This document shows positions 10,665 through 28,990 of a DNA stretch of 64,000 nucleotides, one piece after another; position 1 is the first letter of the stretch, and each line of letters starts with the position of its first letter. The translations under genes were made by a program, and so were the position numbers. The notes below the pieces were generated by a model. The model worked only from the letters and a program-made list of their open reading frames with translations, had not been told where the DNA came from and did no database searches. The DNA is from Clostridia bacterium (GTDB lineage: Bacteria > Bacillota > Clostridia > Christensenellales > Aristaeellaceae): contig JAFZPV010000059.1 of the NCBI GenBank assembly GCA_017552535.1, positions 4,629 to 68,628 on the forward strand. The letters are read 5' to 3'.

Positions 10665-10668
10665 ATTG

Positions 10669-11613: not shown

Positions 11614-11614
11614 G

Positions 11615-13117: not shown

Positions 13118-13127
13118 ATGTTACTCC

Positions 13128-13823: not shown

Positions 13824-14794
13824 TTTTTCAATTCCTCTGTCAGCAATCTGTTTTCTTCTTCGGTGCGTACGGCCAGACGCAGATAATTTGCTCCCAGCCC
13901 AAACGAGGCGCACTCCCTCACGAGTATGTTTCGGGTCTTCAGGTACCAGACCGCATCGCTCATGTCCCGTCCGAAGTCGCACAAAAGGAAATTTGCGTTC
14001 GACGGCTGCACCTGCGCGCCCATATCCTCCAGAAGTGAGCAGAACAGATCCCGCCTGTATTCGTTGAGAGAAGCGTCCCGCCGTATCTCCTCCAGATGCT
14101 CCGGCAGTTCCGCGGCGATCCGCGCCGCGAAAGCGTTAAGCGCCCACGGCATGGCTTTCCGCTTGAGGCACGATATGGCCTCTTTTCCGGCGCACACATA
14201 ACCCAGCCTTACGCCCGGAATGCACAGTATTTTTGTAAGAGAGCCCACTATCGAAAGGCCCTCCTGTGCATCGCGGCGCACGCTGACATCCGGGCAATAG
14301 TCTATGAACGCCTCGTCTGCGATCAGGTCGCACCCGCTGTTTTTCAGGCTCTTATATGTATTCAGTATTTCTTCCCGGCTCATCGCGGTCCCGGTGGGGT
14401 TGTTCGGATTGCAGATCACGCGGGTGTCGCCTTCCCGGAGCTGTGAGCCATCCCAGGTGACACATTCCCGTCCCTGCACGGATGCGCGGAGCGCGTATTC
14501 ACCAAACGTGTGCCTGTCCGTGATCACTCTGCCTGGATTTTGCGAAAGCGCCAGGTCTATTGCCGCTATGCCGCCCGCGGCGGGAAGTATCATATCATCG
14601 CTCACGCCCGCGTACGCGGCAAGGCCGCTCGCGGCTAAACCCATGTCCGGGTCCGGGTAATACCGCACGTTTTCCGACGCGCGACTGATGGCCGATTTTA
14701 CCCACTCCGGCATGCCTTCCGGCCGAAGGTTCGCGGAAAAATCCAGCCAGTGGGACGGATGGCCGCCCTGCCACACGTTGCCGCCGTGCTTCAT
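13808..14794 (-). CDS. cobD: threonine-phosphate decarboxylase (class I/II aminotransferase fold)
   Basis: The start was moved to MKHGGNVW. The PLP lysine context SLTKILCIPGVRLGY is present. There is a 4-bp overlap with cbiA. Confidence 0.85.
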   Translation of the reverse strand: MKHGGNVWQGGHPSHWLDFSANLRPEGMPEWVKSAISRASENVRYYPDPDMGLAASGLAAYAGVSDDMILPAAGGIAAIDLALSQNPGRVITDRHTFGEYALRASVQGRECVTWDGSQLREGDTRVICNPNNPTGTAMSREEILNTYKSLKNSGCDLIADEAFIDYCPDVSVRRDAQEGLSIVGSLTKILCIPGVRLGYVCAGKEAISCLKRKAMPWALNAFAARIAAELPEHLEEIRRDASLNEYRRDLFCSLLEDMGAQVQPSNANFLLCDFGRDMSDAVWYLKTRNILVRECASFGLGANYLRLAVRTEEENRLLTEELKKWLAS

Positions 14795-16092
14795 GGCCAG
14801 AACCTCTCGATGATATCGGGCCTGTGGGCAAAGTAAACGTGGGCGAATGCCGCCAGGCAGTTGTCCTTTTCGTATCCGCATGCCCAGTTCTTTTCCGGCG
14901 CGGAGGCTTTTATCACAGTGTAAGCACGATTGACATCACCTGTCGGCTCCGCCGCGGCATGATGGAACTCATGGGCCGGGAATGTGAGTCCCGTCCTGTC
15001 TTCCACGGTCACATAGCCGAAACGCTGCAGGCGGTCCGTCATCCGGCAGGTTATGGGCAACACGCCGCACATCTCCCTGCCGTCTATGCTTTGACCCAAA
15101 TACATCAGCCCGCCGCACTCCCCATAGCAGCGCGTGCCGTTTTCCAGCGCCGTCTTTATGCTTTTGCGCATGCTCGTATTGGCTTCCAGCGCTTCGGCGT
15201 AAACTTCGGGATAGCCGCCTCCTATATACAGTCCGTCCAGGTTTTCCGGCAGGCAGGCATCCCGGAGCGGTGAAAAATACACAAGCTCCATGCCCAGATC
15301 TTTCAGCGCTTCCAGATTGGCATCGTAGTAGAAATGGAACGCCTCGTCCATGGCTACGCCCAGGCGGTAACCTGCGCGCCTGAAACTGTGTTCGATTGGT
15401 TCTGAAGGCCCGATCGCGGGCGCTCCAGAGGCGATGGAAAGCACCTTGTCCAGATCGAGGGTCTGCTCCGCCAATGCGGCAGTCTCATTGATTCTGTTCA
15501 TCAGGTCCGGTGTCTCGCGGGCAGTCACGAGCCCCAGATGCCGGGACGGAAGCTCGATGACAGCCTGTTTGGTCAAGTAACCTGCGCAGTCCAGACCGGT
15601 ATACTCCTTTACCGCCTGCCTGATCAGCTCATAGTGCCTTTTCCCGGAAACCCGGTTGACCAGTACGCCGCTTATGCGGCTGTCCTCTTTCAGCGTCTGA
15701 AATCCCTTAACTGTCGCCGCCACGCTGGCCGCGCCTCCGGACGCGTCTGCTACAAGCAGTACGGGCGTTTGGGTCAGGCGGGCAAGCTCCCATGTGGAAC
15801 AGCGCATGGACCTGGCATCCAGCCCGTCATAATAGCCCATCACGCCCTCGATCACGGAGATGTCTGCATCGTTTGCCAGCAGGCGCCTTATCTCATTTTC
15901 GTCCATCAGCCAGGTGTCCAGGTTGCAGGACGCCCGCCCGCACACCCTGCGGTGGAACCCGGGGTCGATATAATCCGGCCCGGCCTTGTAAGGCGCAACG
16001 TTCAGACCCCGCCTTTTCAGGCAGGCCATCAGCAGTATGGAAACCGTGGTCTTGCCGCAGCCGCTTCCGGTGCCCGCTACGAGCAGCCTCAA
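14791..16092 (-). CDS. cbiA: cobyrinate a,c-diamide synthase
   Basis: GTGSGCGKTT and GECGGLMYLG motifs. Confidence 0.9.
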   Translation of the reverse strand: MRLLVAGTGSGCGKTTVSILLMACLKRRGLNVAPYKAGPDYIDPGFHRRVCGRASCNLDTWLMDENEIRRLLANDADISVIEGVMGYYDGLDARSMRCSTWELARLTQTPVLLVADASGGAASVAATVKGFQTLKEDSRISGVLVNRVSGKRHYELIRQAVKEYTGLDCAGYLTKQAVIELPSRHLGLVTARETPDLMNRINETAALAEQTLDLDKVLSIASGAPAIGPSEPIEHSFRRAGYRLGVAMDEAFHFYYDANLEALKDLGMELVYFSPLRDACLPENLDGLYIGGGYPEVYAEALEANTSMRKSIKTALENGTRCYGECGGLMYLGQSIDGREMCGVLPITCRMTDRLQRFGYVTVEDRTGLTFPAHEFHHAAAEPTGDVNRAYTVIKASAPEKNWACGYEKDNCLAAFAHVYFAHRPDIIERFWP

Positions 16093-16709
16093 GAGCGCAC
16101 CCCCTCGATGCCGTACATCAGCGCGTTCACGATCGCTGCCGCCACATTGCTACCTCCCCTGCGGCCCATGGCTACGATGCAGGGGATGCCGCTTGCCCAC
16201 AGCTTTTCTTTCGCTTCCACCACGTTCACGAAGCCCACGGGCACGCCAATCACCGCCGTGTCCGCGGGCATGCCGCTTATCTCCGTTATTTCCAAAAGCG
16301 ACAGCAGGAACGTAGGCGCGTTGCCGCACACCAGCAGCTTCGGCCCTTCTATCTTCAGAGCGCGCTCCAGGCTCACGAAGGAGCGGGTCACCCCGCGCTC
16401 CTTCGCCTCCGCCGCCACATCCGCGTCCGCCACAAAGCACACCGCCTTTGCGCCCAGCCTGCCAAGCGCGCTTTTGTTGATGCCTGCCAAAGCCATATTG
16501 GTATCCGTAACGATGGTCGCGCCGCTTTTGAGCATACGGTGTATGTCATCGACGATCCCGGGTGTAAAACGCATGTTGTCAGCAAACGAAAAATCCGCCG
16601 TGGCGTGGATCACCCGCTTTACGATGGGCTTGATATCCGGCGCAAGAGGCGTTTGGAGTTCGTTCTCAATGATCTCCATGCTCCTGTCTTCTATCTCCAT
16701 AGGCAGCAT
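16089..16709 (-). CDS. cbiC: cobalt-precorrin-8 methylmutase
   Basis: VIHATADFSF and VGNAPTAL-like motifs. At 206 aa the size fits. Confidence 0.9.
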   Translation of the reverse strand: MLPMEIEDRSMEIIENELQTPLAPDIKPIVKRVIHATADFSFADNMRFTPGIVDDIHRMLKSGATIVTDTNMALAGINKSALGRLGAKAVCFVADADVAAEAKERGVTRSFVSLERALKIEGPKLLVCGNAPTFLLSLLEITEISGMPADTAVIGVPVGFVNVVEAKEKLWASGIPCIVAMGRRGGSNVAAAIVNALMYGIEGVRS

Positions 16710-16710
16710 T

Positions 16711-17235
16711 TTACCACTCGACTCCCTTCCTGGCAGGCAGTTTTTCGGTGACGTAAGGATGTTTTTCAGCCGTTATCCGGCTTACATAATCGGCTTTTTC
16801 TTTGAGCCAGTCCGGGACTTCGCGTCCCGTGACCGCGGTCTCTCCGGAGGAAAGCGCGTTTTCTATAAGCTCGCGCGCGCTGTTTTCCTCAACCATATCC
16901 AGCGCCAGGGCGATACCGAGCTCGTCCAGGATAATCGTTTGAGGCCGCCACTGCGCGATCGTCAAAGCGACCTGTTTTGCGAAGGCCGTCTGGTCTGCGC
17001 GGGCAGACTGCTTTTCCTCGTCGGTCAAACGGAAGGTAAAGCCTTTGATGGGGTTTGCGGTCATTACGCGCACGTTATCGAATCTGCCAAATGCCTTAAG
17101 CTCCCCGGAATTTCCTTTTTTCATAAACTGGGCTACCAGTACTTTATTGCCGTGACCGGCAGAGCGCAGCGCGAGGCCCATGGCCGCCGTGGTCTTGCCC
17201 TTGCCGTCTCCTGTGTATACGTGCAGTTTGTTCAT
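16711..17235 (-). CDS. cobO: cob(I)yrinic acid a,c-diamide adenosyltransferase (CobA/BtuR/CobO type)
   Basis: YTGDGKGKTTAAMGLALR and ILDELG motifs. Confidence 0.85.
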   Translation of the reverse strand: MNKLHVYTGDGKGKTTAAMGLALRSAGHGNKVLVAQFMKKGNSGELKAFGRFDNVRVMTANPIKGFTFRLTDEEKQSARADQTAFAKQVALTIAQWRPQTIILDELGIALALDMVEENSARELIENALSSGETAVTGREVPDWLKEKADYVSRITAEKHPYVTEKLPARKGVEW

Positions 17236-17241
17236 GCCAGA

Positions 17242-18285
17242 TCACTCCCCGAAAATACCGATGCTGTTTCCATGTCCGTCCAGCATTACCGTTTTCACCT
17301 GAAGCGCGCCTTTTGTGCGCGCCTCGCAGTACATCGACGCGGCTCCGCATAGCCTCGTCCACACTTCCCCGTACCCCGCTTCCCGGATCAGCGGAATCAC
17401 CCCGTCCAGGGTAACGCTGTTCATTACTGATTCGAGAAGCTTTTTCGGCGCGCCCATGAGCGCCAGGTGCGCCGCCACCGGCTCACGCCGCCCGTCGCCG
17501 TATTTGCTGTGGGTCTGCATCGAGCCTCCCGCCACCTTGGCCAGCTTGCCGGGCTGCCCCGCCAGCACAACGTGATGAAAGCCGAGTTCTGCGGCGGTAT
17601 CCAGGGCGAAGCCGACAAAATTGCTGATCTGCACGCAGCTTAGTTCGGGCATCAGCCTGTTCAGCGCCGTTTCTCCCTGGCTTCCGAACACGAGTCCCAG
17701 CGTTTTGGCGCCGTTTTCCCGGCGCATGCTCATTTCAAGGCGAATGGTGTCGGTGAGCGCTTCCTCGCTCATGGGACGCACGATGCCCGTTGTGCCGAGG
17801 ATAGACAGTCCGCCCTCTATTCCAAGGCGGGGGTTGAACGTTTTTTTCGCGATCTCGCGGCCTCCGGTTATGCCCACAGTGACCGTGGCCGCGTTATGCG
17901 GAAACACGCTCCTGACCGCTTCGGTGATCATCTGCCTGGGCACAGGGTTTATCGCGGCCTCGCCCACGGGCAGCTTTAGCCCCGGGAGCGTGATCGTGCC
18001 CACGCCTTCACCCGCAGCAAAAACGATATCCCCGTGCTCCGGCCTGATCAGTACGTCCGCCCAGACTTCGCTGCCGTTGGTAATGTCCGGGTCGTCGCCC
18101 GAATCCTTGTACACAGCGCAGCTGTACGGTTCCATGGCATGGATCGACGGCGCGTAAACCCGTCCTTCGGGCACGGCGATCTCGACCCTTTCCGGGCATT
18201 CACCGTCCCTTTGCCACAGACAGGACGCCAAAGCGCAGGCTGCCGCGCAGGAGCCAGTGGTAAAGCCTTCCCTGAGCGGCGTCAT
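17242..18285 (-). CDS. cbiD: cobalt-precorrin-5B C1-methyltransferase
   Basis: LREGFTTGSCAAACA at the N-terminus and GTTGIVRPMS. Confidence 0.9.
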   Translation of the reverse strand: MTPLREGFTTGSCAAACALASCLWQRDGECPERVEIAVPEGRVYAPSIHAMEPYSCAVYKDSGDDPDITNGSEVWADVLIRPEHGDIVFAAGEGVGTITLPGLKLPVGEAAINPVPRQMITEAVRSVFPHNAATVTVGITGGREIAKKTFNPRLGIEGGLSILGTTGIVRPMSEEALTDTIRLEMSMRRENGAKTLGLVFGSQGETALNRLMPELSCVQISNFVGFALDTAAELGFHHVVLAGQPGKLAKVAGGSMQTHSKYGDGRREPVAAHLALMGAPKKLLESVMNSVTLDGVIPLIREAGYGEVWTRLCGAASMYCEARTKGALQVKTVMLDGHGNSIGIFGE

Positions 18286-19169
18286 GTATTTTCATCCCCC
18301 GCCAGTGCAAAGGTCATGCCTTCGAAAACAGTTTTCCCGGCCAGCAGTCTGCCGCCCGAGGCTTTTACCGCCGCCCGCTCGCACACGTTGCCCACGCCTA
18401 CGGTCTTTTCCACATAGTCCGAATGGGCGAAGACGCCGGGTACGTCCCTGAGCGTCTGAGCGTCGTAGGTCATAAACGGCAAATGATATTTCTCACCAAA
18501 ACGCGTAAGCGCCGGCTCTTCTTTTTTGATGTCTATGCTCGCCAGCGCCTTCAGCGACAACAGCGACACACCGTTTGAGCGCAGGAATTCCAAAGCGTTT
18601 TTTTCGAACGTATCGGCATCCACGCCTTTTTTGCATCCCGCTCCCAACGCCAGGGTGCGGGGGCGCAGAAACAGCGTCACGTCAAAAGGCGGTCTGATCT
18701 CCCTTTCGGTTATGGCGACGCCCACGCTTTTGCCCGCCAGCGCCCGGGATGACACCGCTTTTATGGCACCCGGGTTCTCTATGGACATGTCCTGGCTGAC
18801 CGCCCAGCTGTCTATCGCGGGTATGCCCCTGACGTCTGTTGCCGTGGTGATCACTGGCTGCGCGCCTGTAAGCGCGGCGATCTGCCTGGCCAGTTCGTTG
18901 GCCCCGCCTATGTGGCCCGACAAAAGAGGAATCACATGCTGCCCCATTTCATCCATCACCACCACGGCGGGGTCAGTGGTCTTGCTTTTCACCAGCGGTG
19001 CGATCGCCCGTACGGCGATGCCTGCCGCGCCTATGAACAAAAGCGCGTCCGCCTGGTCGAAATTCGCTTTCGCCCACTCTGTCACAGGCACGCCGCGATC
19101 CACGGGTATGCCAAGCGTTTCTGACCAGCTTTGGCCCTTGTCGGTGAAGGCTATCGCGCGCAGTATCAT
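18282..19169 (-). CDS. cbiG: cobalt-precorrin-5A hydrolase
   Basis: CbiG layout (FIGAAGIAVRAIAP...GVGCKKG-like GAGCKKG) and operon position between cbiF and cbiD. Confidence 0.85.
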   Translation of the reverse strand: MILRAIAFTDKGQSWSETLGIPVDRGVPVTEWAKANFDQADALLFIGAAGIAVRAIAPLVKSKTTDPAVVVMDEMGQHVIPLLSGHIGGANELARQIAALTGAQPVITTATDVRGIPAIDSWAVSQDMSIENPGAIKAVSSRALAGKSVGVAITEREIRPPFDVTLFLRPRTLALGAGCKKGVDADTFEKNALEFLRSNGVSLLSLKALASIDIKKEEPALTRFGEKYHLPFMTYDAQTLRDVPGVFAHSDYVEKTVGVGNVCERAAVKASGGRLLAGKTVFEGMTFALAGDENT

Positions 19170-19912
19170 TTTTTCGCCTCCCGGAACATGTGGGAGAACG
19201 CGGGATCGTAAAGCTTTGAGCGTTCGTATTCGCTGCCCATAAAGCCGCCCACCAGCACCAGAGCGGTGCGTCCGAGATGCGCAGCCTTCTGCGGCAGCGT
19301 TTCCAGCGTGCCTTTTACGACCTCTTCATCCGGCCATGTGGCCTTATACACCACCGCCGCGGGCGTATCAGGCGCGTAGCCGCCCTCGATCAGTTCCCCG
19401 CAAAGCTTCTCCAGCATCCCTGCGCTCAAAAACAGCGCCATGCTTGCCCCGTGGGCCGCCAAGGAACGGATATCCTCTTTCTCCGGCACGGGCGTCCTGC
19501 CCGCCATGCGGCTCACGATCAGCGTCTGGCTGACCCCCGGCAGGGTGTACTCGGCTTTCAGCACCGCCGCCGCCGCGTTCATGGAGCTTACACCGGGCAC
19601 TACCTCATAATTATACCCCAATCTGTCCAGTTCGTCCATCTGTTCGCGTATGGCTCCGTAGATCGACGGATCTCCCGTGTGCAGGCGCACGACGGTCTGG
19701 GTCCTGGGACGCGCCGCCATGGCTGCGATCACTTCTTCCAGCGTCATGGACGCGCTGTTCATCTTCTCGCAGCCTTCCCCGCAGTAAGTAAGCAGTTCCG
19801 GGTTGACCAACGAACCCGCGTAGATCACCAGATCCGCGCGCTTGAGCAGTTCCATGCCCCTTACGGTGATCAGGTCGACTGCGCCCGGACCCGCGCCTAT
19901 AAAGTATATCAT
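19166..19912 (-). CDS. cbiF: cobalt-precorrin-4 C11-methyltransferase
   Basis: The start was moved to MIYFIGAGPGAVDLITVRG. LHTGDPSIYGA and VPGVSS motifs are present. Confidence 0.9.
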   Translation of the reverse strand: MIYFIGAGPGAVDLITVRGMELLKRADLVIYAGSLVNPELLTYCGEGCEKMNSASMTLEEVIAAMAARPRTQTVVRLHTGDPSIYGAIREQMDELDRLGYNYEVVPGVSSMNAAAAVLKAEYTLPGVSQTLIVSRMAGRTPVPEKEDIRSLAAHGASMALFLSAGMLEKLCGELIEGGYAPDTPAAVVYKATWPDEEVVKGTLETLPQKAAHLGRTALVLVGGFMGSEYERSKLYDPAFSHMFREAKK

Positions 19913-21105
19913 ATTTCGCCCTCCATCGTCGCCGCGAACACGAATACGGGATTCTGCGCCCTGAACATATTGTAACGCCCGACCTTCTCCAGACGCGATA
20001 CGGCCACCTGCGCAGCCGAGAAATCCGCGTATCCGGACAGCAGCTTCATGTACAGCTCCGCGCTCTCCATCGTGACCGCCGTGGCGCACACACGGATACG
20101 CCTGCCAAAGCTCTCCAGTTTTTTCAGTATCTCTTCGGTCTCTCCGCCCGTGCCGCCCAGGAAAACGTGCGTGGGCGCGGGAAGGCCTTCCAGCGCCCCG
20201 GGTGCGCTGCCCGCAGTGATGCGGATATTCAGCGCGCGAAAATTCGCCTTGTTTTGCCTGATCAGTTCCAGCGCTTCCTCATCCCGCTCCACGGCGTACA
20301 CTTCGCCCAGCGGGCAATTCAAAGCGCACTCCACCGACACGCTGCCCGTGCCGGCGCCTATATCCCACACCAAGCTGTCCGGCGCGAGCCTGAGTTTTGA
20401 TATCACCTGCGCGCGTATCTCGCTTTTGGTCATGGGCGTCTTGCCGCGTATGAACTCCGCGTCGTCCAGGCCCGATGGCCTGATATCGTCATGCGGTGCG
20501 TCGTTCAGTATGAGCGCCGCCGAAAGGGGATCGTATTCCCTGTCTTCGTATAATCCAACGGATTCGTCCGGATAACTCAGTTTTTCGCCTATAAACAGCC
20601 TGGCCCCGGCCAGTCCTCCTTCTGACAGCGCAGCGTGCACCCATTTAGGGTTGTTTTCCCCGTCCAGCAGCACGATCGTTTTGGGATTCGTGCGGCAGAA
20701 ATGGCAAAGCGCGTTTAAAGAAAGCGCCCGGCCGTGGGCGGACACGATCTTCGCGTCCTGCCAGCTCACCCCCAGCCTGGCGCACAGCGCCTGCACGCTG
20801 CTGACGCCGCAGATCACGTGTATACCTTCTTTTCCGAAGCGCTTTTCAAGCAAAAGCAGCAGGCTGTAAAGCCCTGTGTCTCCCGAAAGCAGCACGGCTG
20901 GCTGGCTGCCCAGTTTCAGCGCCTGTTCCATTTCGTCCATGGCGGCGGCAAAGGGCGTAAGGGATCGCCGTTTGATTTGGGGCACAAGAGCATCGTTCCT
21001 TTCCGCGCACCAGACCAGGTCGGCTTTGTTTACCGCGTTTTGGGCTTCCGGCGTCATCATATCCCCGCTGCCCGGGCCTGCGCCGATCACATACAGCTTG
21101 TTCAT
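19909..21105 (-). CDS. cbiET: fused cobalt-precorrin-7 C5-methyltransferase / cobalt-precorrin-6B C15-methyltransferase (decarboxylating)
   Basis: The N-terminal tetrapyrrole methylase motif is IGAGPGSGDMMT. The C-terminal SAM motif is VWDIGAGTGSVSVE. Confidence 0.85.
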   Translation of the reverse strand: MNKLYVIGAGPGSGDMMTPEAQNAVNKADLVWCAERNDALVPQIKRRSLTPFAAAMDEMEQALKLGSQPAVLLSGDTGLYSLLLLLEKRFGKEGIHVICGVSSVQALCARLGVSWQDAKIVSAHGRALSLNALCHFCRTNPKTIVLLDGENNPKWVHAALSEGGLAGARLFIGEKLSYPDESVGLYEDREYDPLSAALILNDAPHDDIRPSGLDDAEFIRGKTPMTKSEIRAQVISKLRLAPDSLVWDIGAGTGSVSVECALNCPLGEVYAVERDEEALELIRQNKANFRALNIRITAGSAPGALEGLPAPTHVFLGGTGGETEEILKKLESFGRRIRVCATAVTMESAELYMKLLSGYADFSAAQVAVSRLEKVGRYNMFRAQNPVFVFAATMEGEI

Positions 21106-21848
21106 GCGTCCTTATCCTCTTTTGACCGGTAGCCACGGGGCGTGATCAGCCTTCCGCCGCTTATACGCGTGGATGCGGAACCCACAAACACGGTGGTGAA
21201 CATATCCGCGGGATAATCCTTCAGTTCCTTAAGCGTCATTGTCCTGGAAAACTCGTTTTCCCGGCCTATGTTCGCCGCCGCGCCGCAGGCAGTCTCGGGC
21301 GGCAGGTATTCCAGCAGTATCTCACAGGCGCGTTTCAGGTAATCCGGGCGCTTGTGGCTGGCGGGATTGTATATGGCCAGGCAAAGATCCGCCTGGGCGG
21401 AAAGGCGCAGCCGCTTTTCTATCGTTTCCCAGGGCGTCAGGGCGTCAGAAAGCGAGATGACCGCGAAATCGTGGCCCAGCGGCGCCCCCAGGAGCGCCCC
21501 GCCGCTCAGCGCTGCGGTAACACCCGGCACGATCTCCACGTCGATCTCTTTTATTCCCTCGCTGAGCTCCAGCACCAGCGACGCCATGCCGTACACTCCC
21601 GCGTCGCCGGAGCAGATCACCGCCGTCGTCTTTCCCGACATCGCAGCGTCTATGGCCATCTGGCAGCGCTGCGTCTCCTGGCGCATGGGCGTTTGCAGGT
21701 ATACCTTGTCCGGAAACATGGGCCTGACCAGCTCGTTGTACACCTGGTAGCCCACGATAACGTCCGCGTTTTTCAGCGCCTTTGCCGCCCGAAAGGTCAT
21801 ATCCTCCGCGCTGCCCGGACCGATGCCCACTACGTAAAGCTTATTCAT
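21102..21848 (-). CDS. cbiH: cobalt-factor III / precorrin-3B C17-methyltransferase
   Basis: VGIGPGSAEDMT, SGDAGVYGMAS and LSDALTPWETIEKRL...AIYNPAS match the CbiH/CobJ signature. Confidence 0.85.
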   Translation of the reverse strand: MNKLYVVGIGPGSAEDMTFRAAKALKNADVIVGYQVYNELVRPMFPDKVYLQTPMRQETQRCQMAIDAAMSGKTTAVICSGDAGVYGMASLVLELSEGIKEIDVEIVPGVTAALSGGALLGAPLGHDFAVISLSDALTPWETIEKRLRLSAQADLCLAIYNPASHKRPDYLKRACEILLEYLPPETACGAAANIGRENEFSRTMTLKELKDYPADMFTTVFVGSASTRISGGRLITPRGYRSKEDKDA

Positions 21849-21861: not shown

Positions 21862-23280
21862 TCAGTTCAGTTTATTCAGGAACATCATGCCTTCCGTCTC
21901 CCCGGAAAGCATTTTACCCAGATCGTCTATAAATGTACCTATTTTGTCTGTAGACTGGTACAGAGACGGATGCGTGCAGAACACGTTGCCTGTGCTGACA
22001 GCCCGGAAATCCGAAAGCAGCGGCTGCACGGAGATGAGCTCGGCAACGTTTGACACCGGCGCCTCTATGGCGGAGTTATATATGATGTAATCCGCGTCCT
22101 TCGCAGTCATGTAGAACGTTTCCATGGTTACACTCACCGAAGCGTTGGTCTCCTGTCCTTCAATGGACGTAAACACATAGCTGCCTCCAGCCAGCTCTAT
22201 GGAGCGCGCTATGTAGTCCTCCGAGCCGCGCACCGTGACCGTACCGTCGGGTTTTACCGAGAAAAACGCAACCGTCTTGCCGCTGCCGCCCTTTGAGTCT
22301 ATCGCCTCTACCTGAGCGGCCTGCGCTTCAAATACGTTTTCCGCTTCGGCTTCGCGGCCCGTGAGCAGGCCGTACAGTTTGATCCACTCCAGCCGCCCCA
22401 GGGGATGAGCCTCGCTGCTGGAACGGTCTATGAACACCGGAATCCCGAGCAGCCTGATCAGTTCCATCACCTGCGGTGTGTGGAGTATCATCATGGATTC
22501 CACCGCCAGGCGGCAGTGTTCCCTGATCAGCAGCTCAAAATCCGGAGTGGAGTACTTACCGGCGAATATGATGTCGCCGTTTTCCATGGCTTTTACCGCG
22601 TTTTCCACATACCAGCCGTCCTGCTGCGTGCCGGAGAGCCGTATGGTATCCAGCGCGCCGACAGCGTCAAACAGCGACATGGCCGACGTGGCAGCCAGAT
22701 AGATGTTGTCAAGCGGCTGTTTCAGCACGGTAACGGACGGATGCAGGCCTTCGGGAGTTTCTTTGCCTTCCGGCACGACGAGATAGGTTTCGCCGTCCTC
22801 CACGCTTATCATCGCATAGCCGCCCTCGTAATAATCCACGCTGAAGCCCCGGGCGTACCTGAGAAACATGCTGCCTGTCCGCCTGAGCCCCGCAGGAGCA
22901 ACATCGCCCAGAGCGATATACATCTGATACTCTATCTCGTGGGGCACGCTCATGGCCACGGTAGTGGCGTAAACCGTAAACGCGCGGTTGAGGCCTACAG
23001 ATACGAAAAAAACTGCGCCTTCGTCGCTCACTTCGGCTTCATAGCTGTCTGCGTCTATTCGTACACTTGTATAATTCCTGCTGGAAAACACGAGCTTTGC
23101 CGTGGCAGCGCCGTTCTCAACGCTTACTTCGGGGCAGGTGATCGTCACGCGCCCCGTGCCGCCGGAAAACACAAATTCCTCAGGCACGTATGTGCCGTCA
23201 GCGATCCCGCTTCCGGCTTCGCACATGCATGCCGGCATGAGCAAAGCGAGTAATAAAACGAATGCCAGTACTTTTTTCAC
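21862..23280 (-). CDS. class III (BtuF/FecB/IsdE-type) substrate-binding lipoprotein with an extra N-terminal beta-domain of about 95 aa
   Basis: GTG start 7 nt after AAGGAGG and a signal peptide ending LLMPAC. The body is paralogous to the SBP at 27342-28451 (RYARGFSVDYYEGGYAMISV versus LEYADQFSVDFCEGGYSLITI). Confidence 0.85.
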   Translation of the reverse strand: MKKVLAFVLLLALLMPACMCEAGSGIADGTYVPEEFVFSGGTGRVTITCPEVSVENGAATAKLVFSSRNYTSVRIDADSYEAEVSDEGAVFFVSVGLNRAFTVYATTVAMSVPHEIEYQMYIALGDVAPAGLRRTGSMFLRYARGFSVDYYEGGYAMISVEDGETYLVVPEGKETPEGLHPSVTVLKQPLDNIYLAATSAMSLFDAVGALDTIRLSGTQQDGWYVENAVKAMENGDIIFAGKYSTPDFELLIREHCRLAVESMMILHTPQVMELIRLLGIPVFIDRSSSEAHPLGRLEWIKLYGLLTGREAEAENVFEAQAAQVEAIDSKGGSGKTVAFFSVKPDGTVTVRGSEDYIARSIELAGGSYVFTSIEGQETNASVSVTMETFYMTAKDADYIIYNSAIEAPVSNVAELISVQPLLSDFRAVSTGNVFCTHPSLYQSTDKIGTFIDDLGKMLSGETEGMMFLNKLN

Positions 23281-23303
23281 CGGGCAGCCTCCTTTTCTCG
23301 CTC

Positions 23304-24170
23304 TCACTCCCCGGACGGGCTGCCGTCCAGGGCAGTGAGAGTTTCAGAAAAGAACGTAACACTGTATGCCACCTCCGTGGCGGGCTTGATGGCCGTTGAG
23401 TCTACCGTAACAGCGATCTTCTGATCGAATACGGCCACCGGTATTACAAACGCCGCTCCGTCTTCCGCGGAGACAGGCGTGTATTTTTCGCCGTCCACTA
23501 TGATATAATCGATCTTTGCTGTAGAAAATACGATGCGCGCGGTGCACTCGCCGCTTTCAACCGTGATAACGGCGGGCGACTGCACTGTGGTCCTGCCTTT
23601 GCCCTCCAGCACTGCTTCGCATTCATATTCGCCGTCTTCCAGTCCCAGCGTCTCCGCCGTTACCAGATTTTCTGCTTTAAAAGCTTCCAGCGGCAGCGAG
23701 TCGGACCTGAAAGCCAGCGTTCTGGGGTACCAGGCCTGCTTCCTGTCACTCAGCGCCGCGCAGACGTAAGGGCTGTCCAGTGCGTCCACAGGCAACTCAA
23801 AATACAGACCTGTCTCGTCTTCTTTCAATGGGATAAGGGAATCGCGGGGCGTTTCGGCTGCCTCGCCGGCTTTTCCCGGGAACATGTAGCTGTACGCGGT
23901 GCTTTTCATGTAGAGACGAGCGGTCATGCCGGTCTCAGATACGGTAAGCGTGCATCCCACCACCTTGAACATGGCCGAGGACGAATCCACCTTGACTTCG
24001 TATTCGCCTTCGTTCAGCATTTCGGGCGTTATCGGGTTTAACCCTTCCATGTCCAGCAGCGCCACATCCGTCATTTCCTCTTCTGTGGCCACATGGCCGA
24101 TCGGCCCATTTTCGGCGCACGCGCCCAGCAGCATCGCCGCCAGCATCATCACGCAGATCATCCGTTTCAT
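23304..24170 (-). CDS. lipoprotein with two copies of the same beta-domain of about 100 aa; function unknown
   Basis: The lipobox is LLGAC. The repeats begin EGEYEVKV (aa 54) and DGEYECEA (aa 179). The second aligns closely with the N-domain of the SBP at 21862-23280. Confidence 0.8.
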   Translation of the reverse strand: MKRMICVMMLAAMLLGACAENGPIGHVATEEEMTDVALLDMEGLNPITPEMLNEGEYEVKVDSSSAMFKVVGCTLTVSETGMTARLYMKSTAYSYMFPGKAGEAAETPRDSLIPLKEDETGLYFELPVDALDSPYVCAALSDRKQAWYPRTLAFRSDSLPLEAFKAENLVTAETLGLEDGEYECEAVLEGKGRTTVQSPAVITVESGECTARIVFSTAKIDYIIVDGEKYTPVSAEDGAAFVIPVAVFDQKIAVTVDSTAIKPATEVAYSVTFFSETLTALDGSPSGE

Positions 24171-24244
24171 ACAGATACCTTTCCCTTCTGTTCCGGCGCG
24201 TTTTATACAAGGGCAACCGAATGGCTGCCCCCTCTTTTACCTGT

Positions 24245-25177
24245 TTATTCTTCCACCTGCGCGATGGCCGCGAGCGCATGCTCCACGTAGATCTGCTGGA
24301 TTTCGGGCACCTGTCCCAGGCCTTCCAGCACGCACTCCACTTCATAGCCAGCGGCAGCAAAGATGGACTTCCAGGAGTCTTCCTCGTCACCTGCCATGTC
24401 GTTGTTGGCGTGATCGCCGCACACCACCATCATGTCCCTGAGCACTACACGGGTGTAGCCCTTGTCCGCGATAGCCTCAAGCACGGTATCGATGGAAGGC
24501 TCGGCTTCCACGGTGCCGATGTAGTAGTTCGCGGCGCCCTTCGCCTTAAGCACATCCTGCATCTGAGCATAGATCTTGTTGTACTCGTGCTCGGTGCCGT
24601 GGCCCATGTACACGATGGCGGTCTTGCCGTCGTCATAATCCTTCAGCAGGCTGATCATGATATCCGAAACGCGGTCGAAATCCTCGTCGGTGGTCAGCAG
24701 GGGCTCGGAAACCACGATCTGCTCGAAAGCGTCTGCGTAGCCCGCCAGACCTTCCACCAGCTCGTCGTACTCAAAGCCGTGCATAAGGTGGGTGGGCTGC
24801 ACGACCAGGATCTTCACGCCGTTTTTGACAGCGCGGTCAAGCGCCTCTTCCACGTTGTCGATGTGGATGCCGTCGCGCCTTTCCACGTGGTCGATGATGA
24901 TCTGCGCGGTGAACGCGCGGCGCACGGCGAAATCTTCGACCGCTTCGTCGATAGCTGCCTCGATGCCGCCGATAGTCAGGCGCCGGCTGTCGTTAAAGCT
25001 GGTGCCGAAGGATACGACCAGCAGTTCTTTGTCACCGATCCCGTCTTCGTTGCGCACCAGGTCCAGAGCAGCGTCGCCGGTCTCGTAGTTCTCTTCGTCT
25101 TCTTCTTCCGCCATCGCGCCGAACGCGCAGATAAGCAGAAGTACCAGCGCCAGCAGAAGTGAAATCAGTTTTTTCAT
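24245..25177 (-). CDS. CbiK-type (class II) chelatase homologue with an N-terminal signal peptide, predicted to be extracytoplasmic
   Basis: The start was moved to MKKLISLLLALVLLLICAFGAMA, followed by the acidic linker EEEDEENYE. The CbiK-like core includes LVVSFGTSF, VVQPTHLMHGFEYD and IVYMGHGTEHE. GGAGGGA RBS. Confidence 0.8.
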   Translation of the reverse strand: MKKLISLLLALVLLLICAFGAMAEEEDEENYETGDAALDLVRNEDGIGDKELLVVSFGTSFNDSRRLTIGGIEAAIDEAVEDFAVRRAFTAQIIIDHVERRDGIHIDNVEEALDRAVKNGVKILVVQPTHLMHGFEYDELVEGLAGYADAFEQIVVSEPLLTTDEDFDRVSDIMISLLKDYDDGKTAIVYMGHGTEHEYNKIYAQMQDVLKAKGAANYYIGTVEAEPSIDTVLEAIADKGYTRVVLRDMMVVCGDHANNDMAGDEEDSWKSIFAAAGYEVECVLEGLGQVPEIQQIYVEHALAAIAQVEE

Positions 25178-25199
25178 GGGACTCCCTCCGTTCATTATT

Positions 25200-26321
25200 C
25201 TATTGCAGTTCTCCCGCGGAGAACACAATATTCAATTTGTGCCGCCGGGCTGTTTCCAGCAGCCCGGTATTGGGGTTGGCTGTCTGTGCAGCAGGATCGA
25301 AGGCGGCCAGCACCGTCCCGCAGGAGAGCATCTTCTCCTCCGCCCGCGCTTTTGTCTCTTCGGACGCGGTCTCAAACGCCGGACTGCTCACCACCGTTTG
25401 GGCAAGGGCCCTGGCTACCTCGAACTCCATATCGTTCTCGGCCAGTATGCCCGCAGCGAACGGTATACGCCTTTTCTGCAGTTCGCGGTAATGGTTAAGC
25501 CCGCTTCCGGCGCCGCCCAGCACGAACACCCGCGGTTCTCCCTGCGTCTTCACCAGTTCCACGCTGCCCCTGTTCACCAGATAGCTGCCCTGCGTGATGC
25601 CGTACAGTTCTTTTATGTGGGCGTCCGTGAAGACCCTGTCGGGCGTATCCGGCGCTTCGGCGTGATCGCCCCTGACGCACATGATCAGGTCGGAAACCTT
25701 TTCTGCCAGGTCGATCTCATGCAGTGAAAGTATCACTGTCGTCTGCTTTTCCCTCGCCGTTTCCAGCAGTATGTCCAATAGCTCGATCTTGTTGCGTATG
25801 TCCAGGAAGGAAGTGGGTTCGTCCAGCACCAGCACTTCCGGCTGCTGGCACAGTGCGCACGCCAAAAGTACGCGCTGCCTCTGCCCGTCGCTGATCTGTG
25901 AAAAATCCCTATCTGCTATGTCGTCCGCCCTGACGCGCCTGAGCGTGTCCCGCACGGTACGCTTGTCCTCGGCGGTCAAAGCCCCGAAACGCCCGGTGTA
26001 TGGATAGCGTCCCATCGCCGCCACTTCGAAGCAGGTCATCATTTCCGTGCGGACGCGCTCGGTAAGCACCACAGCCAGCTTTTTGGCCAGCTCGCCCCGC
26101 GGCCACCTGCTAAGCTCACGGCCTTCCACGAAGGTCTTCCCCGAAATGGCCGGCAGCTGCCCTGTGACGGTTTTGAGTATCGTGGATTTGCCCGCGCCGT
26201 TGGGCCCGATCAGCGCCAGGATCTTTCCTTTCTCCAGGCGTATGTTGATGTCGTTTATCAGCGCTTTGCCTCTATAACCGACGCACAGTCCCTCGGTAGA
26301 AAACACGTACCCGTCAGTCAT
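25200..26321 (-). CDS. ABC importer ATPase (FepC/BtuD-like) with a C-terminal extension of about 115 aa
   Basis: Walker A GPNGAGKST, signature ISDGQRQR and Walker B VLVLDEPTS. The extra C-terminus begins around PRVFVLGGAGSG. Confidence 0.9.
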   Translation of the reverse strand: MTDGYVFSTEGLCVGYRGKALINDINIRLEKGKILALIGPNGAGKSTILKTVTGQLPAISGKTFVEGRELSRWPRGELAKKLAVVLTERVRTEMMTCFEVAAMGRYPYTGRFGALTAEDKRTVRDTLRRVRADDIADRDFSQISDGQRQRVLLACALCQQPEVLVLDEPTSFLDIRNKIELLDILLETAREKQTTVILSLHEIDLAEKVSDLIMCVRGDHAEAPDTPDRVFTDAHIKELYGITQGSYLVNRGSVELVKTQGEPRVFVLGGAGSGLNHYRELQKRRIPFAAGILAENDMEFEVARALAQTVVSSPAFETASEETKARAEEKMLSCGTVLAAFDPAAQTANPNTGLLETARRHKLNIVFSAGELQ

Positions 26322-27345
26322 CGCCGCGCCTCCTCTGCCGGTTTATCATAAGCGTTATGACCACCGGCGCCCCGAACACTGCCGTAACGGTGCTTATGAC
26401 AAGCTCTGAAGGAGCGAAAGCAGTGCGGGCGATCAGGTCACAGCCCATGCAGAACACGCCGCCCAGCAAAAACGAACCAGGTATGATGACAGCCGGTTTT
26501 GACGTGCCGAACAGGAGTTTGGTCATATGCGGTACGGCAACGCCCACGAACGAGATCGGTCCCGAAAGCGCCGTCACGCACGCCGACAGCACGCTGGACA
26601 GGCCGATCAGCGCCACGCGGAACAGTTTCACGTTCACGCCCATGCTGCGGGCGTAGTTCTCCCCGAGCCGGTACGCGGATATGGGTTTGGACAGCATAAA
26701 CGACAGCGCCAGCGCAGTGAAAACGATTGCCGATATCACGTGCAGGTTCGGCCACGATACCGCCGAAAAGCTGCCCATGGACCAGTGATGCAGGTTCGCC
26801 ACGTTGGCTTCGTCCGCAAAGGTGATGAAGAAATCCGTGATCGCCGTGCAGATGCTGCCTATCATGATGCCTATGACCAGCAGCGCCGCCATGCTTCTTA
26901 CGCGCTGCGCGAACATAAGCACGAACAGCATGACCAGCATGGAGCCCGCGAACGCCGCAGCCATGACCGCCCAGAAAGGCACGCCGGACACATACCTGAG
27001 TACATAGACCATCATGATGCCCACAAACAGCTTCGCGCCGGACGAAATGCCCAGCACGTAGGGCCCTGCTATGGGATTGCGGAAAAACGTCTGCAGCAGA
27101 AAACCGGATACGGACAGCGCGCCTCCCAGCACCGCGGCCGCCAAAAGCCGGGGAAGACGGATCTTCCATATGACGTTGCCGATGGAAGACCCGTCCGATT
27201 TGCCCGAAAGCACGATCCGCAGTATTTCCTTTGGCGCTATGGACACACTGCCGGTGTTCACGTTCAGCACAAGTATGGCCAGAAACGCGAAGCCCAGCAG
27301 GGAGAACACCAGCGTGATGCGCAGCGCCGTAATCTTCTTTGTCAT
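26314..27345 (-). CDS. FecCD/BtuC-family ABC permease
   Basis: About 9-10 hydrophobic segments, RLPRLLAAAVLGGALSVSG and the C-terminal VTAVFGAPVVITLM pattern. Confidence 0.9.
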   Translation of the reverse strand: MTKKITALRITLVFSLLGFAFLAILVLNVNTGSVSIAPKEILRIVLSGKSDGSSIGNVIWKIRLPRLLAAAVLGGALSVSGFLLQTFFRNPIAGPYVLGISSGAKLFVGIMMVYVLRYVSGVPFWAVMAAAFAGSMLVMLFVLMFAQRVRSMAALLVIGIMIGSICTAITDFFITFADEANVANLHHWSMGSFSAVSWPNLHVISAIVFTALALSFMLSKPISAYRLGENYARSMGVNVKLFRVALIGLSSVLSACVTALSGPISFVGVAVPHMTKLLFGTSKPAVIIPGSFLLGGVFCMGCDLIARTAFAPSELVISTVTAVFGAPVVITLMINRQRRRGDD

Positions 27346-28451
27346 GAAAGCTTGAACAGATAGGTGAACTCGGTCACAGCGGGATCGTCATTGGTGAGCA
27401 TTTTGTTAAAGTCCAGTATCATCGCGCCTAAAGTATCGGAGATCTGGAAGTAGTCGGGCGTGGTAAACCACACATTGCCTTCCTTCACCGCTTTGAAGTC
27501 CGCCAGTATCGGACTGCGCGCCAGGAACTCCTCCATGGTAGCGGGTTTGCCGCCCATGGACCAGATGTACACGATGTAATCCGCTTCGCCCGCGCCGATA
27601 TAGAACTCCTCGGCTTCGATCTTCTGGGTGCCGCTCTTTTCCGGAGACAGTTCAGGCAGCACATATTCGCCGCCGGCCAGCTCCAGCATTTTCACCATGT
27701 AGTCTCCCGCGCGGCGGGTGTACAGATCGCCCTTGGACGTGATGTAGAACATGGCCACGGTTTTGCCGGTGGATTCTTCAGGAATCGCCTCGATAAGCGC
27801 TTTCTGAGCGTCATAATGCGCCTGCGCTTCGGCTTCCTTGCCCAAGAGCACGCCGTAGAGCTTGATCCACTCCATACGCGCCAGAGGATGGCTTTCGTAG
27901 GTAGAGCAGTCCCTCATGTACGGAATGCCGATCTCTTTAAGCTTTTCCGCCACTTCCGGCACACTGTCAAGCATGGTGGAGAACACGGCGAACGGGGGCT
28001 TATTGGCTGTCAGCGTCTCGAAGTCAGGGGCCTTGTAACTGCCGATATACGTCAGCTTGCCCGCGTCCATGGCTGCTTTGACTTCATCTATGTACCAGCC
28101 GTCGTACTCCTGGGTGGTGGTAGCCACGGCGTCCAGCGCGCCGAGGGCGTTTATGAGAGAAACCGTGGGCGTGGAAGAAATGAGCAGGTTGTCAAGCGGC
28201 AGCTGCAGTGTGACGATATCCTCGGGCAGGCCCTCCGGGATCTGTGCGCCTTCGGGGATGGTCAGAAAGCGCGCGCCGTCGCTGATGGTGATCAGGCTGT
28301 AGCCGCCTTCACAGAAGTCCACGCTGAACTGATCCGCGTATTCAAGTTCAAGAGACCCGGTTATGGTGAGAGCCGCGGTCTCTGCCGTAACGGGCAGGCA
28401 GGTAAGGATGAGAGCAACGACCAGGATGAGCACTGCCGGGAATCGTTTCAT
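27342..28451 (-). CDS. class III substrate-binding lipoprotein (BtuF/FecB/IsdE type)
   Basis: Signal peptide with LTC. It is a paralogue of the SBP at 21862-23280. It is the first gene after the riboswitch, with GGAGG 7 nt upstream. Confidence 0.9.
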   Translation of the reverse strand: MKRFPAVLILVVALILTCLPVTAETAALTITGSLELEYADQFSVDFCEGGYSLITISDGARFLTIPEGAQIPEGLPEDIVTLQLPLDNLLISSTPTVSLINALGALDAVATTTQEYDGWYIDEVKAAMDAGKLTYIGSYKAPDFETLTANKPPFAVFSTMLDSVPEVAEKLKEIGIPYMRDCSTYESHPLARMEWIKLYGVLLGKEAEAQAHYDAQKALIEAIPEESTGKTVAMFYITSKGDLYTRRAGDYMVKMLELAGGEYVLPELSPEKSGTQKIEAEEFYIGAGEADYIVYIWSMGGKPATMEEFLARSPILADFKAVKEGNVWFTTPDYFQISDTLGAMILDFNKMLTNDDPAVTEFTYLFKLS

Positions 28452-28490
28452 TGGGATGCCTCCGTCAAGAGATTTATTTTTCCGGGCAGG

Positions 28491-28523
28491 CTAAAGAAAA
28501 ATCCCAATTCCGTACGGAATGGG
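28491..28523 (-). terminator. intrinsic terminator serving as the expression platform of the cobalamin riboswitch
   Basis: The minus strand reads CCCATTCC-GTAC-GGAATTGGG (one bulge) followed by ATTTTTCTTT, about 40 nt upstream of the SBP start. Confidence 0.6.
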
Positions 28524-28544
28524 ACGCACAAACAAAGCACAGCA

Positions 28545-28795
28545 CGGACTCTTATGTGAGCCCCGGCTTTGCGGCTGTCCTTCTCCCCTGCCCAAGAAAT
28601 CAATGCCTCAGACAGTTCCGGCAGGTCTCCTGGCTTATGGCTCAGCTTTACCCGCAACCCGCGCGCCTTCTCAAGCATGGCTTAATGGCATCTGCGCAGG
28701 TCTTTCGCCAAATACAGTAATGGCTGTTGCGCCGGATTCTCACCGGCTTCCCTTTTCACCCGGGCGGAAACATCCCCCGGACACCTGAACTGCGT
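28545..28795 (-). promoter_or_regulatory. cobalamin (AdoCbl) riboswitch aptamer
   Basis: The minus strand contains AAAAGGGAAGCCGGTGAGAATCCGGCGCAACAGCC (28729-28752 region). It also contains the B12 box AGCCAGGAGACCTGCC (revcomp of 28620-28635). The outer boundaries are approximate. Confidence 0.85.
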
Positions 28796-28812
28796 ATTCA
28801 GTTATCGCTTTA

Positions 28813-28841
28813 AGTATACATCAGTCACCAGCGTTAGTCAA
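28813..28841 (-). promoter_or_regulatory. candidate sigma-A promoter driving the riboswitch and the block of about 21 kb
   Basis: On the minus strand: TTGACT (28841-28836), a 17-nt spacer, then TATACT (28818-28813). Confidence 0.5.
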
Positions 28842-28930
28842 CAAGTATATTGATCCAATCACGTCAATTGAAATGTATTCAGGCTATTTTGTGTGAACCC
28901 CTTTAATAGGCATCCCGAAAGCTTTCCCAC

Positions 28931-28988: not shown

Positions 28989-28990
28989 TC

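Follow-up and report, generated by a model that had tools for sequence, protein, structure and literature searches.

Gut and rumen communities are shaped by competition for B12-type cofactors, and corrinoids are abundant in both rumen and gut as analogues and fragments. Machinery for the capture of such compounds is known for Bacteroidota, and a 2026 review describes Gram-positive extracellular cobamide capture as 'entirely uncharacterized' (PMC13616437). The riboswitch-controlled BtuFCD system of C. difficile has been shown by experiment to import cobamides and cobinamide (10.1101/772582), and a Desulfovibrio locus combining cbiK-cbiL with btuCDF likewise lies behind a B12 element (PMC545781). 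Here, we describe a module of six genes behind a cobalamin riboswitch in 64,000 nucleotides (nt) of DNA from a member of the Clostridia (GenBank assembly GCA_017552535.1, contig JAFZPV010000059.1, positions 4,629 to 68,628; this whole stretch is referred to as the window, and positions are counted from its first letter). Based on the observed parts, folds, export signals, gene order, regulation and conservation, we propose, with a probability of about 0.57, that the module is a cobalamin-repressed system for surface capture and import of a cobalt tetrapyrrole, most likely corrinoids.

The features of the locus are given below (SBP, substrate-binding protein; ABC, ATP-binding cassette; aa, amino acids).

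28841..28813, minus strand: sigma-70-type promoter, TTGACT-17-TATACT, matching the consensus at 10/12 positions
28803..28603, minus strand: cobalamin riboswitch aptamer, Rfam RF00174, 104.2 bits against a gathering score of 31.5, E 5e-25
28525..28493, minus strand: expression platform, a terminator-like hairpin and U-run in the minimum free energy (MFE) fold of the leader
27342..28451, minus strand: SBP1, a class III SBP (Peripla_BP_2, 95 bits) without a NEAT-like domain
26314..27345, minus strand: FecCD-family permease of a type II ABC importer, 267 bits
25200..26321, minus strand: ABC ATPase (ABC_tran) of 373 aa, the last ~120 of which form a conserved C-terminal extension
24245..25177, minus strand: class II chelatase homologue of the CbiK family (PF06180, 260 bits) with a signal peptide and an acidic N-terminal extension
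23304..24170, minus strand: lipoprotein of 288 aa, lipobox LLGAC, with two domains (D1-D2) modelled as divergent NEAT folds
23685..24041, minus strand: D1 domain, lipoprotein residues 44-162
23325..23669, minus strand: D2 domain, lipoprotein residues 168-282
21862..23280, minus strand: SBP2, a class III SBP preceded in the same protein by a NEAT-like domain, with Peripla_BP_2 matching at residues 197-439 only
22903..23211, minus strand: DN domain, SBP2 residues 24-126, the third copy
7477..21848, minus strand: continuation of the transcription unit, cbiH to cobC, by gene annotation and after a 13-nt gap behind SBP2

The lipoprotein has no Pfam or NCBIfam match. The first-pass annotation of this DNA had read a third copy of its domain at the N-terminus of SBP2, and this was confirmed both by BLASTP (lipoprotein residues 176-271 against SBP2 residues 25-120, E 1e-10) and by profile-profile comparison (D2 against the SBP2 N-terminus, E 2e-27; D1 against D2, E 5.6e-11; D1 against the SBP2 N-terminus, E 6.6e-7). 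The 447 relatives of the lipoprotein that were gathered are all unnamed or 'hypothetical', and a few have a precomputed PF05031 (NEAT) tag. Among 25 family members scanned at E<=1, PF05031 gave weak matches in 13, in both halves of the protein, and P0111 alone scored above the gathering score (36.9 against 32.8 bits), while the window lipoprotein and the N-terminus of SBP2 had no match to this model even at E<=1. Comparison of the lipoprotein, the family profile and the homologue P0111 with the sequences in the PDB returned nothing relevant, and only fold comparison pointed to NEAT. The AlphaFold2 model of the lipoprotein, built on an alignment of the relatives, has a predicted local distance difference test score (pLDDT) of 90.3 and a predicted template modelling score (pTM) of 0.81, and consists of two beta-sandwich domains with the eight-stranded immunoglobulin-like fold of NEAT. 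In a Foldseek search against the PDB with this model, the first 16 places were all taken by NEAT proteins at probability 1.0, led by the tandem-NEAT structures IsdH-N2N3 and IsdB (together E 7e-7 to 1e-5, with 7e-7 for IsdH-N2N3) and followed by single NEAT domains such as IsdX1 (template modelling score 0.70, root-mean-square deviation 2.7 Å). The model of SBP2 (pLDDT 90.6) has a similar beta domain at residues 29-123 ahead of a standard class III SBP. Considering the Foldseek matches together with the weak PF05031 matches of the homologues, we conclude that the repeat, as modelled, is a divergent NEAT fold that is unrecognised by the family's sequence model. The relay-like domain, which the first-pass annotation had compared with NEAT, is thus predicted to have the NEAT fold itself (IsdH-N2N3, IsdB and IsdX1 being the nearest structures).

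The three domains differ in their conserved residues. In D1, the residues S64, S65, M67, F68, C137, W147, Y148 and R150 are invariant and C73, Y93 and K144 nearly so, giving the motifs SSxMF and KxxWYxR. The last strand of D2 reads [H/Y/T]-E-x-x-Y, with nearly invariant E266 and Y269 (Tyr occupies the last position in 78/80 loci), and position 265 is His in 49/80, Tyr in 11/80 and Thr, Val or Ser in 17/80. The last-strand motif of DN, H114-E-x-x-Y118, is conserved in the family and is HEIEY in the window copy. None of the window domains has the canonical Y-x-x-x-Y motif of haem-iron ligands (KQAWY in D1, TEVAY in D2, HEIEY in DN), and the clade of the window has lost the His of D2 and gained an extra His-bearing domain on SBP2. 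Position 265 of D2 and H114 of DN are candidate axial ligands as judged from these sequences. When D1, D2 and DN were aligned to IsdC with hhalign, position 265 fell over the axial Tyr132 and Y269 over Tyr136 at E 0.1; these alignments are non-significant (E 0.1-0.4), and the register of the axial ligand is therefore only suggestive.

The second accessory protein is a homologue of CbiK, with a match to PF06180 (260 bits) well above the cut-off of 26.2. Its score against the NCBIfam equivalog NF047852 is 217.5 bits, below the cut-off of 400, and the protein is thus a member of the family and not the equivalog. Its location is not the cytoplasmic one expected of an anaerobic-pathway CbiK, as its N-terminus (MKKLISLLLALVLLLICAFGAMA/EEEDEE) is a predicted signal peptide. 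An N-terminal hydrophobic signal was found in 75/78 homologues, with a lipobox in 61, and these signal peptides group the window protein with the exported subgroup represented by CbiK(P) and FetB. The closest structures in the PDB are P. gingivalis FetB (9b86, E 1.8e-45), Salmonella CbiK (1qgo, E 2.4e-42) and Desulfovibrio CbiK(P) (2xvx, E 2.9e-33). Residues H193, E224 and H256 align to the cobalt ligands of Salmonella CbiK, His145, Glu175 and His207, and are invariant in 76/76 cluster-associated homologues. A strongly acidic, conserved extension, EEEDEENYETGDA, follows the signal peptide. This stretch, EEEDEENYETGDAxLD...NxDxIG (CbiK residues 29-48; window 25030-25090, minus strand), is nearly invariant in the 76 homologues, stands between the signal peptide and the chelatase domain, and could be a metal- or partner-binding site. 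No second CbiK-type gene was found in the window or in the 80 flanking regions of the related loci described below, a search that did not extend to CbiX-type chelatases or the rest of the genomes; the hidden Markov model used was contaminated by CbiK-NEAT fusions and its lipoprotein matches were discarded.

Upstream of the first gene, the promoter lies about 10 nt from the riboswitch, which matches the RF00174 covariance model over its full length (model positions 1-189 of 189) and above the gathering threshold. Between the aptamer and SBP1, the letters GUCCCAUUCCGUACGGAAUUGGGA, followed by UUUUUCUUU, form the terminator-like hairpin and its U-run, 41 nt ahead of the start codon of SBP1. A simple terminator scan missed this hairpin, probably because its stem is bulged. 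The reading of a cobalamin riboswitch with its own terminator ahead of six genes has therefore held (RF00174 at 104.2 bits, hairpin and U-run in the MFE fold), and the RF00174 site is the sole riboswitch in the 64-kb window according to the Rfam scan. Judged from the aptamer and the terminator, the operon is predicted to be repressible by cobalamin. Just upstream of the operon promoter, at window positions ~28927-28990 (plus strand), we also observed a stretch similar to the 3' half of a tRNA (..GGTTCGAGTCC..GCACCA), which is not called by ARAGORN or Rfam and may be an integration-site remnant.

Behind the leader, the genes for SBP1, the FecCD permease, the ATPase, CbiK, the two-repeat lipoprotein and SBP2 follow in this order on the minus strand, tightly packed with intergenic gaps of -8 to 74 nt, and all six identities and positions agree with those first assigned from the letters alone. 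The gap between SBP2 and cbiH, on the same strand, is 13 nt. The order continues with cbiH, cbiET, cbiF, cbiG, cbiD, cobA/btuR, cbiC and cbiA, followed by cobD, cbiJ, cbiP, cbiB, cobT, cobU, cobS and cobC, among which BtuR/CobA, CobU, CobS, CobT, CobC, CbiP and CbiB are salvage-capable. The six genes are thus not a self-contained unit, and the transcription unit extends into the full anaerobic cobalamin pathway. The earlier view of the six genes as one module stands insofar as their core recurs in other genomes, and does not stand as to its end, because transcription runs on into the cob genes after 13 nt. Among the annotated genes of the 64-kb window there is no cbiL, no second CbiK-type chelatase and no CbiMNQO-type cobalt transporter.

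The lipoprotein family is large. A profile search of 1.84 billion representatives gave 2,397 relatives at E<=1e-3, of which 1,696 also passed E<=1e-10, and the family comprises about 2,400 clusters at 50% identity. In a survey collection with one genome per species, about 480 loci encode relatives; we examined the 80 most similar of these, a sample biased towards close relatives. All 80 belong to Clostridia from rumen, gut or faeces, and the carriers include Oscillospiraceae, Lachnospiraceae, Ruminococcus (R. flavefaciens among them), Evtepia gabavorous, Fusibacillus kribbianus, Brotonthovivens, Lachnoclostridium sp. An14 and Clostridiales bacterium NK3B98. Nearly all loci have the core order exported CbiK, D1-D2, SBP, permease and ATPase, ahead of which the clade of the window places an additional SBP1-permease-ATPase set. 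The CbiK gene always adjoins the NEAT-like gene and the SBP gene. Besides, natural fusions join D1-D2 to the SBP in 8 loci and CbiK to D1-D2 in 3 loci, and the SBP has an extra DN domain in 10 loci. Stand-alone clusters of five genes, away from cob genes, occur in Ruminococcus (L044, L066). The position of the riboswitch in the 80 loci was as follows.

65/80 loci: cobalamin riboswitch immediately 5' of the first cluster gene (nhmmer)
7/80 loci: locus truncated by a contig end
4/80 loci (L040, L042, L055, L077): cluster embedded behind same-strand cob genes
2/80 loci (L061, L064): compact aptamer-like conserved leader, unrecognised by Rfam
2/80 loci (L022, L059): without such a leader

Rfam confirmed the riboswitch in 7/7 loci tested and found none in the eight loci without an nhmmer match that were rechecked with it. 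In L033 and L050, whose cob operon is divergent, one riboswitch precedes the cluster and another the cob genes. The question of whether the gene set always follows a cobalamin riboswitch can therefore be answered in the affirmative for 65/80 loci and not for L022 and L059, which have no riboswitch-like leader, and from which it follows that a minority of the systems must be regulated in another way. The regions upstream of the cluster in these two loci (L022:3090-3600 and L059:2740-3095) are ordinary promoter regions with no riboswitch-like leader. The leader common to L064:8740-8870 and L061:8730-8860 resembles a compact cobalamin aptamer, with a GGGAA..GGGGUGCAAAGCCCC..CACUGU core, a 'B12 box' AGUCAGAAUGCC and a 10-bp closing helix GACAGCCUUC/GAAGGCUGUC. 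The leader of L064 had no match even at E<=1 in a permissive scan of Rfam 15, and the leader of the two loci may be an uncatalogued riboswitch variant.

Giant proteins with NEAT-like repeats are encoded at four further places.

L081:1268-7165
L083:6001-13617
L084:1797-6218
L082:1092-5909

These giants, of the type (D1)n-DN-SBP-like, are 1,473 to 2,538 aa long, combine between four and ten NEAT-like repeats with an SBP-like C-terminus, and are encoded directly upstream of an SBP, a FecCD permease and an ATPase, with cbiD following in L081 and L082. An Rfam cobalamin riboswitch lies directly upstream in 3/4 of the giant loci, and none of the four has a CbiK gene.

The FecCD permease, the Peripla_BP_2 proteins and the ABC ATPase together have the composition of a BtuFCD-type (type II) importer. 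The identity of these proteins with BtuC, BtuD or BtuF does not reach equivalog level. The best NCBIfam match of the permease is BtuC, at 214.6 bits against a cut-off of 334 and so below equivalog level, that of the ATPase is NF007082, 'corrinoid ABC transporter ATPase' (195.5 bits against a cut-off of 537; residues 10-349), and neither SBP has an NCBIfam match. In the PDB, HmuU (E 1e-47) and BtuC (E 2e-46) match the permease about equally well. SBP1 shares 41% identity with the SBP part of SBP2, matches a siderophore SBP weakly and is restricted, among the 80 loci examined, to the clade of the window (L001, L003, L004, L005, L013). Foldseek comparison of SBP2 gave siderophore, haem and B12 binders at equal scores, with a resemblance to CeuE, PhuT, HutB and BtuF, and choosing the ligand from SBP2, SBP1 or the permease was abandoned, as none of these matches was discriminating. 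The C-terminal ~120 aa of the ATPase (window 25200-25580, minus strand) form a conserved extra domain in the ATPases of the clusters, which are 366-383 aa long. This extension had no match in the Pfam copy searched, its homologues are tagged PF27219 (MJ0874) in precomputed Pfam, and the archaeal NF007082 is the only model that also spans most of it, up to residue 349/373. Elsewhere in the window, four large open reading frames (350-716 aa), at 4463-6385, 31560-33710, 150-1202 and 50678-51814, all on the minus strand, have no Pfam match at E<=1e-5.

Considering these findings, the folds of two of the three types of accessory protein are known for holding a metallated tetrapyrrole. The accessory proteins are tied genetically and, via fusion, physically to a type II ABC importer, and the module travels with B12 genes. 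The simplest reading that we infer from this is a surface relay for a cobalt tetrapyrrole, with corrinoids as the likeliest substrates, such as cobamides, cobinamide or other incomplete corrinoids of rumen or gut fluid. In the mechanism that we propose, scarcity of adenosylcobalamin (AdoCbl) would cause the riboswitch to let transcription past the leader terminator. The exported products would be the CbiK-fold protein, the membrane-anchored tandem NEAT-like lipoprotein and the two class III SBPs, one of them with its own NEAT-like domain. The NEAT-like domains, like the haem-relay domains of Isd and IsdX, would bind the macrocycle, probably through the axial His or Tyr of the last beta strand, and would then pass it to the SBP in a hand-off between domains. 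The SBP would dock on the FecCD permease and the ATPase for import, and the co-transcribed adenosyltransferase, CbiP/CbiB and CobU/S/T/C, among them enzymes of amidation and of the nucleotide loop, would finish or rebuild the cofactor. The exported chelatase homologue, with its complete His-Glu-His site, would either act on the metal or hold the cobalt macrocycle, serving as a station at the beginning or the end of the relay.

A further step, which we take tentatively and at somewhat less than even odds, is that the NEAT-fold domains are themselves corrinoid binders and make up a Gram-positive 'corrinophore' relay, alongside which a class II chelatase would act on the cobalt macrocycle outside the cell. 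It is possible, if slightly on the doubtful side, that such a relay, with one to ten domains per protein that are sometimes fused to an SBP, is the monoderm counterpart of Bacteroides BtuG/H/J/K. The extracellular chelatase could hold incomplete, carboxylate-rich corrinoids, or could insert or remove cobalt. If the 'corrinophore' relay exists, both the ring and the scarce metal would be salvaged in the cobalt-limited rumen.

Several points weigh against a corrinoid capture system. To our knowledge, the ligands of the NEAT domains characterised so far are haem or haemoglobin in every case and never corrinoids. The only sequence-level PDB relatives of SBP2 are SBPs of NEAT haem systems, namely Lmo2184 (E 9e-7) and IsdE (E 0.028). 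The permease is equally near to HmuU and BtuC, the SBP fold fails to separate binders of siderophores, haem and B12, and the NCBIfam equivalog cut-offs for BtuC and BtuD are unreached. Plain corrinoid binding needs no invariant chelatase metal site. Moreover, two loci (L022, L059) have no riboswitch-like leader, and the surveyed 80 loci are the closest of about 480 and hence a biased sample. Finally, cobalt can be the cargo of a BtuF-like ABC system that is controlled by a cobalamin riboswitch, as exemplified by CbtJKL (PMC7689651).

Acquisition of cobalt is the first rival explanation, and we consider it unlikely. In this case, the system would serve de novo B12 synthesis by providing Co2+; the His-Glu-His site of CbiK would capture Co2+, strip it from cobalt chelates or tetrapyrroles, or load a carrier, and the SBP, FecCD permease and ATPase would import cobalt or a small cobalt chelate in the manner of CbtJKL, each an improbable role in our judgement. 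The invariance of the metal triad (76/76), the conserved and strongly acidic N-terminal extension of the CbiK homologue, the lack of a CbiMNQO-type transporter among the annotated window genes, and the cluster being very often fused to or beside de novo cob operons are all consistent with it. There is also precedent in S. meliloti CbtJKL, a BtuF-like Co2+ importer under a cobalamin riboswitch (PMC7689651), and in the closest solved structure, FetB/IhtB of P. gingivalis, a surface protein with chelatase activity for which a dechelatase role has been proposed as well (PMC13065792, PMC12094164). However, cobalt acquisition leaves unexplained the tandem and multi-copy NEAT-fold domains, which are known to hold a tetrapyrrole, and it sits poorly with the giants, which have up to 10 repeats behind riboswitches and no CbiK gene, and with the stand-alone clusters away from cob genes. 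FecCD type II importers with class III SBPs, besides, usually carry large chelates. Those same NEAT folds would be accounted for by uptake of haem or iron-porphyrin, that is, by a true Isd-like system whose only tie to the B12 genes is a common transcript or regulon, as could arise, for instance, from the precursors that haem and B12 have in common. In addition to the fold, the canonical Y-x-x-x-Y spacing in 11/80 D2 domains, the weak kinship of SBP2 with Lmo2184 and IsdE in the PDB, HmuU as the best PDB match of the permease, and the binding of haem by the exported CbiK homologues studied so far all agree with it. We nevertheless regard haem uptake as quite improbable, because the cobalamin riboswitch is near-universal and dedicated to the cluster even where cob genes are absent or divergent, and because we know of no physiological reason for shutting off haem uptake when AdoCbl is abundant. 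Neither Fur-type or haem-linked genes, nor a haem oxygenase or a sortase, were seen among the annotated window genes or the few neighbours in four related loci, and the putative axial position of D2 is mostly His, not Tyr. A role of the CbiK homologue in binding or dechelating haem, of the kind suggested for IhtB and CbiK(P), seems to us similarly improbable.

A third rival explanation would be an ordinary BtuFCD with an ordinary biosynthetic CbiK, the 'signal peptide' being an annotation artefact and the NEAT-like proteins mere passengers on the cell surface, unrelated to the importer. It would fit with no other CbiK-type chelatase having been found in the window or the 80 flanking regions, and with the gene standing directly after cbiJ, a possible biosynthetic place for cbiK, in L040, L042, L055 and L077. 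The absence of another chelatase is not established, however, as CbiX-type enzymes and the rest of the genomes were outside the search. The signal is clear in 75/78 homologues, 61 of them with a lipobox, and an artefact was rejected on this ground. Furthermore, CbiK is fused to D1-D2 in three loci and always adjoins the NEAT-like gene and the SBP gene, and its closest solved structure is the surface protein FetB. We therefore give this explanation very little credence, the least of those considered. Surface capture and import of corrinoids remains the reading that we prefer; the earlier interpretation of the locus as a possible relay for corrinoids, a cobalt-tetrapyrrole or a cobalt chelate is supported, and every part of it that could be tested computationally came out in its favour.

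The first-pass annotation had known of no Gram-positive system with this composition, and we likewise found none described in the literature searched, which left most subscription journals outside its scope. Within this literature, no paper treats NEAT domains together with riboswitches, none of those on NEAT and cobalamin or corrinoids describes such a system, and searches combining exported CbiK with riboswitches or BtuG with chelatase gave no description of it. New here are the modelled NEAT fold of the repeat, the continuation into the cob pathway, the recurrence in about 480 loci, the linkage to riboswitches, the natural fusions and the invariant chelatase site. Overall, the module is probably the uncharacterised system by which these gut and rumen Clostridia capture B12-type compounds, and it provides a concrete and widespread candidate for the Gram-positive Firmicutes. 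Binding of corrinoids by the NEAT-like domains, if real, would widen the ligand range of a fold considered specific for haem, and would assign a function to the exported CbiK homologues, which have lacked a clear role ever since the description of CbiK(P) and IhtB. Since several of the carriers can be grown in culture, and since the small proteins are modelled with high confidence, the question is directly testable.

Compared with known systems, the module resembles the Isd, IsdX and Hbp systems (S. aureus IsdABCH-IsdEF, B. anthracis IsdX1/X2, Listeria Hbp1/2-Lmo2184), and would operate as an Isd/IsdX-like relay delivering to an importer of the IsdEF or BtuFCD type. It shares with them NEAT-fold domains, as modelled here, in single, tandem and many-copy form on surface proteins, the position of these proteins beside a class III lipoprotein SBP, a FecCD permease and an ATPase, a conserved aromatic/His residue pair on the last beta strand, and an SBP2 whose nearest PDB sequence relatives are Lmo2184 and IsdE. 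On the other hand, the window system is under a cobalamin riboswitch and not Fur, its domains have no Pfam NEAT match at E<=1, and K-x-x-W-Y (D1), [H/Y/T]-E-x-x-Y (D2) and H-E-x-x-Y (DN) replace Y-x-x-x-Y. Its proteins are anchored by lipobox or signal peptide and not by sortase and LPXTG, an exported CbiK homologue is added while an IsdG/I haem oxygenase is lacking, NEAT-like domains are fused directly to the SBP, and the system is embedded in cob operons. The marks of an Isd-type locus are accordingly missing, with no C-terminal sorting motif (LPXTG/NPQTN) and with cob genes in place of a haem oxygenase as neighbours; Fur boxes were not searched.

An exported CbiK fold beside an SBP, a FecCD permease and an ATPase is also found in Desulfovibrio vulgaris, in CbiK(P) and its btuCDF-like transporter, and in P. 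gingivalis IhtB/FetB (ihtABCDE), with conserved metal ligands and with FetB as the best PDB match. Those proteins, in contrast, are periplasmic or outer-membrane proteins of Gram-negative hosts, depend on a TonB receptor in the case of Iht and are not known to have a NEAT-like partner, and the roles proposed are haem or iron handling or the synthesis of manganese protoporphyrin IX (PMC13065792, PMC12094164). The clostridial proteins have, in addition, the N-terminal motif Y-E-T-G-D-A-x-L-D...N-x-D-x-I-G. With CbtJKL of Sinorhizobium meliloti, the module has in common a BtuF-like SBP, a permease and an ATPase under a cobalamin riboswitch (PMC7689651), although CbtJKL imports Co2+ and has neither NEAT-like nor chelatase partners. 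A type II ABC importer under a cobalamin riboswitch is likewise the common feature with BtuFCD of E. coli and C. difficile, from which the window genes differ in falling below the NCBIfam cut-offs for BtuC and BtuD. The BtuB-BtuG/H/J/K cobamide relay of Bacteroides differs in its folds, those of the BtuG, BtuH, BtuJ and BtuK families being unrelated to the NEAT-like and CbiK folds found here, and in its host, as the present one is a monoderm, which lacks both an outer membrane and BtuB. What the two have in common is the use of accessory surface proteins that capture the ligand, here a probable corrinoid, ahead of the transporter (PMC13616437).

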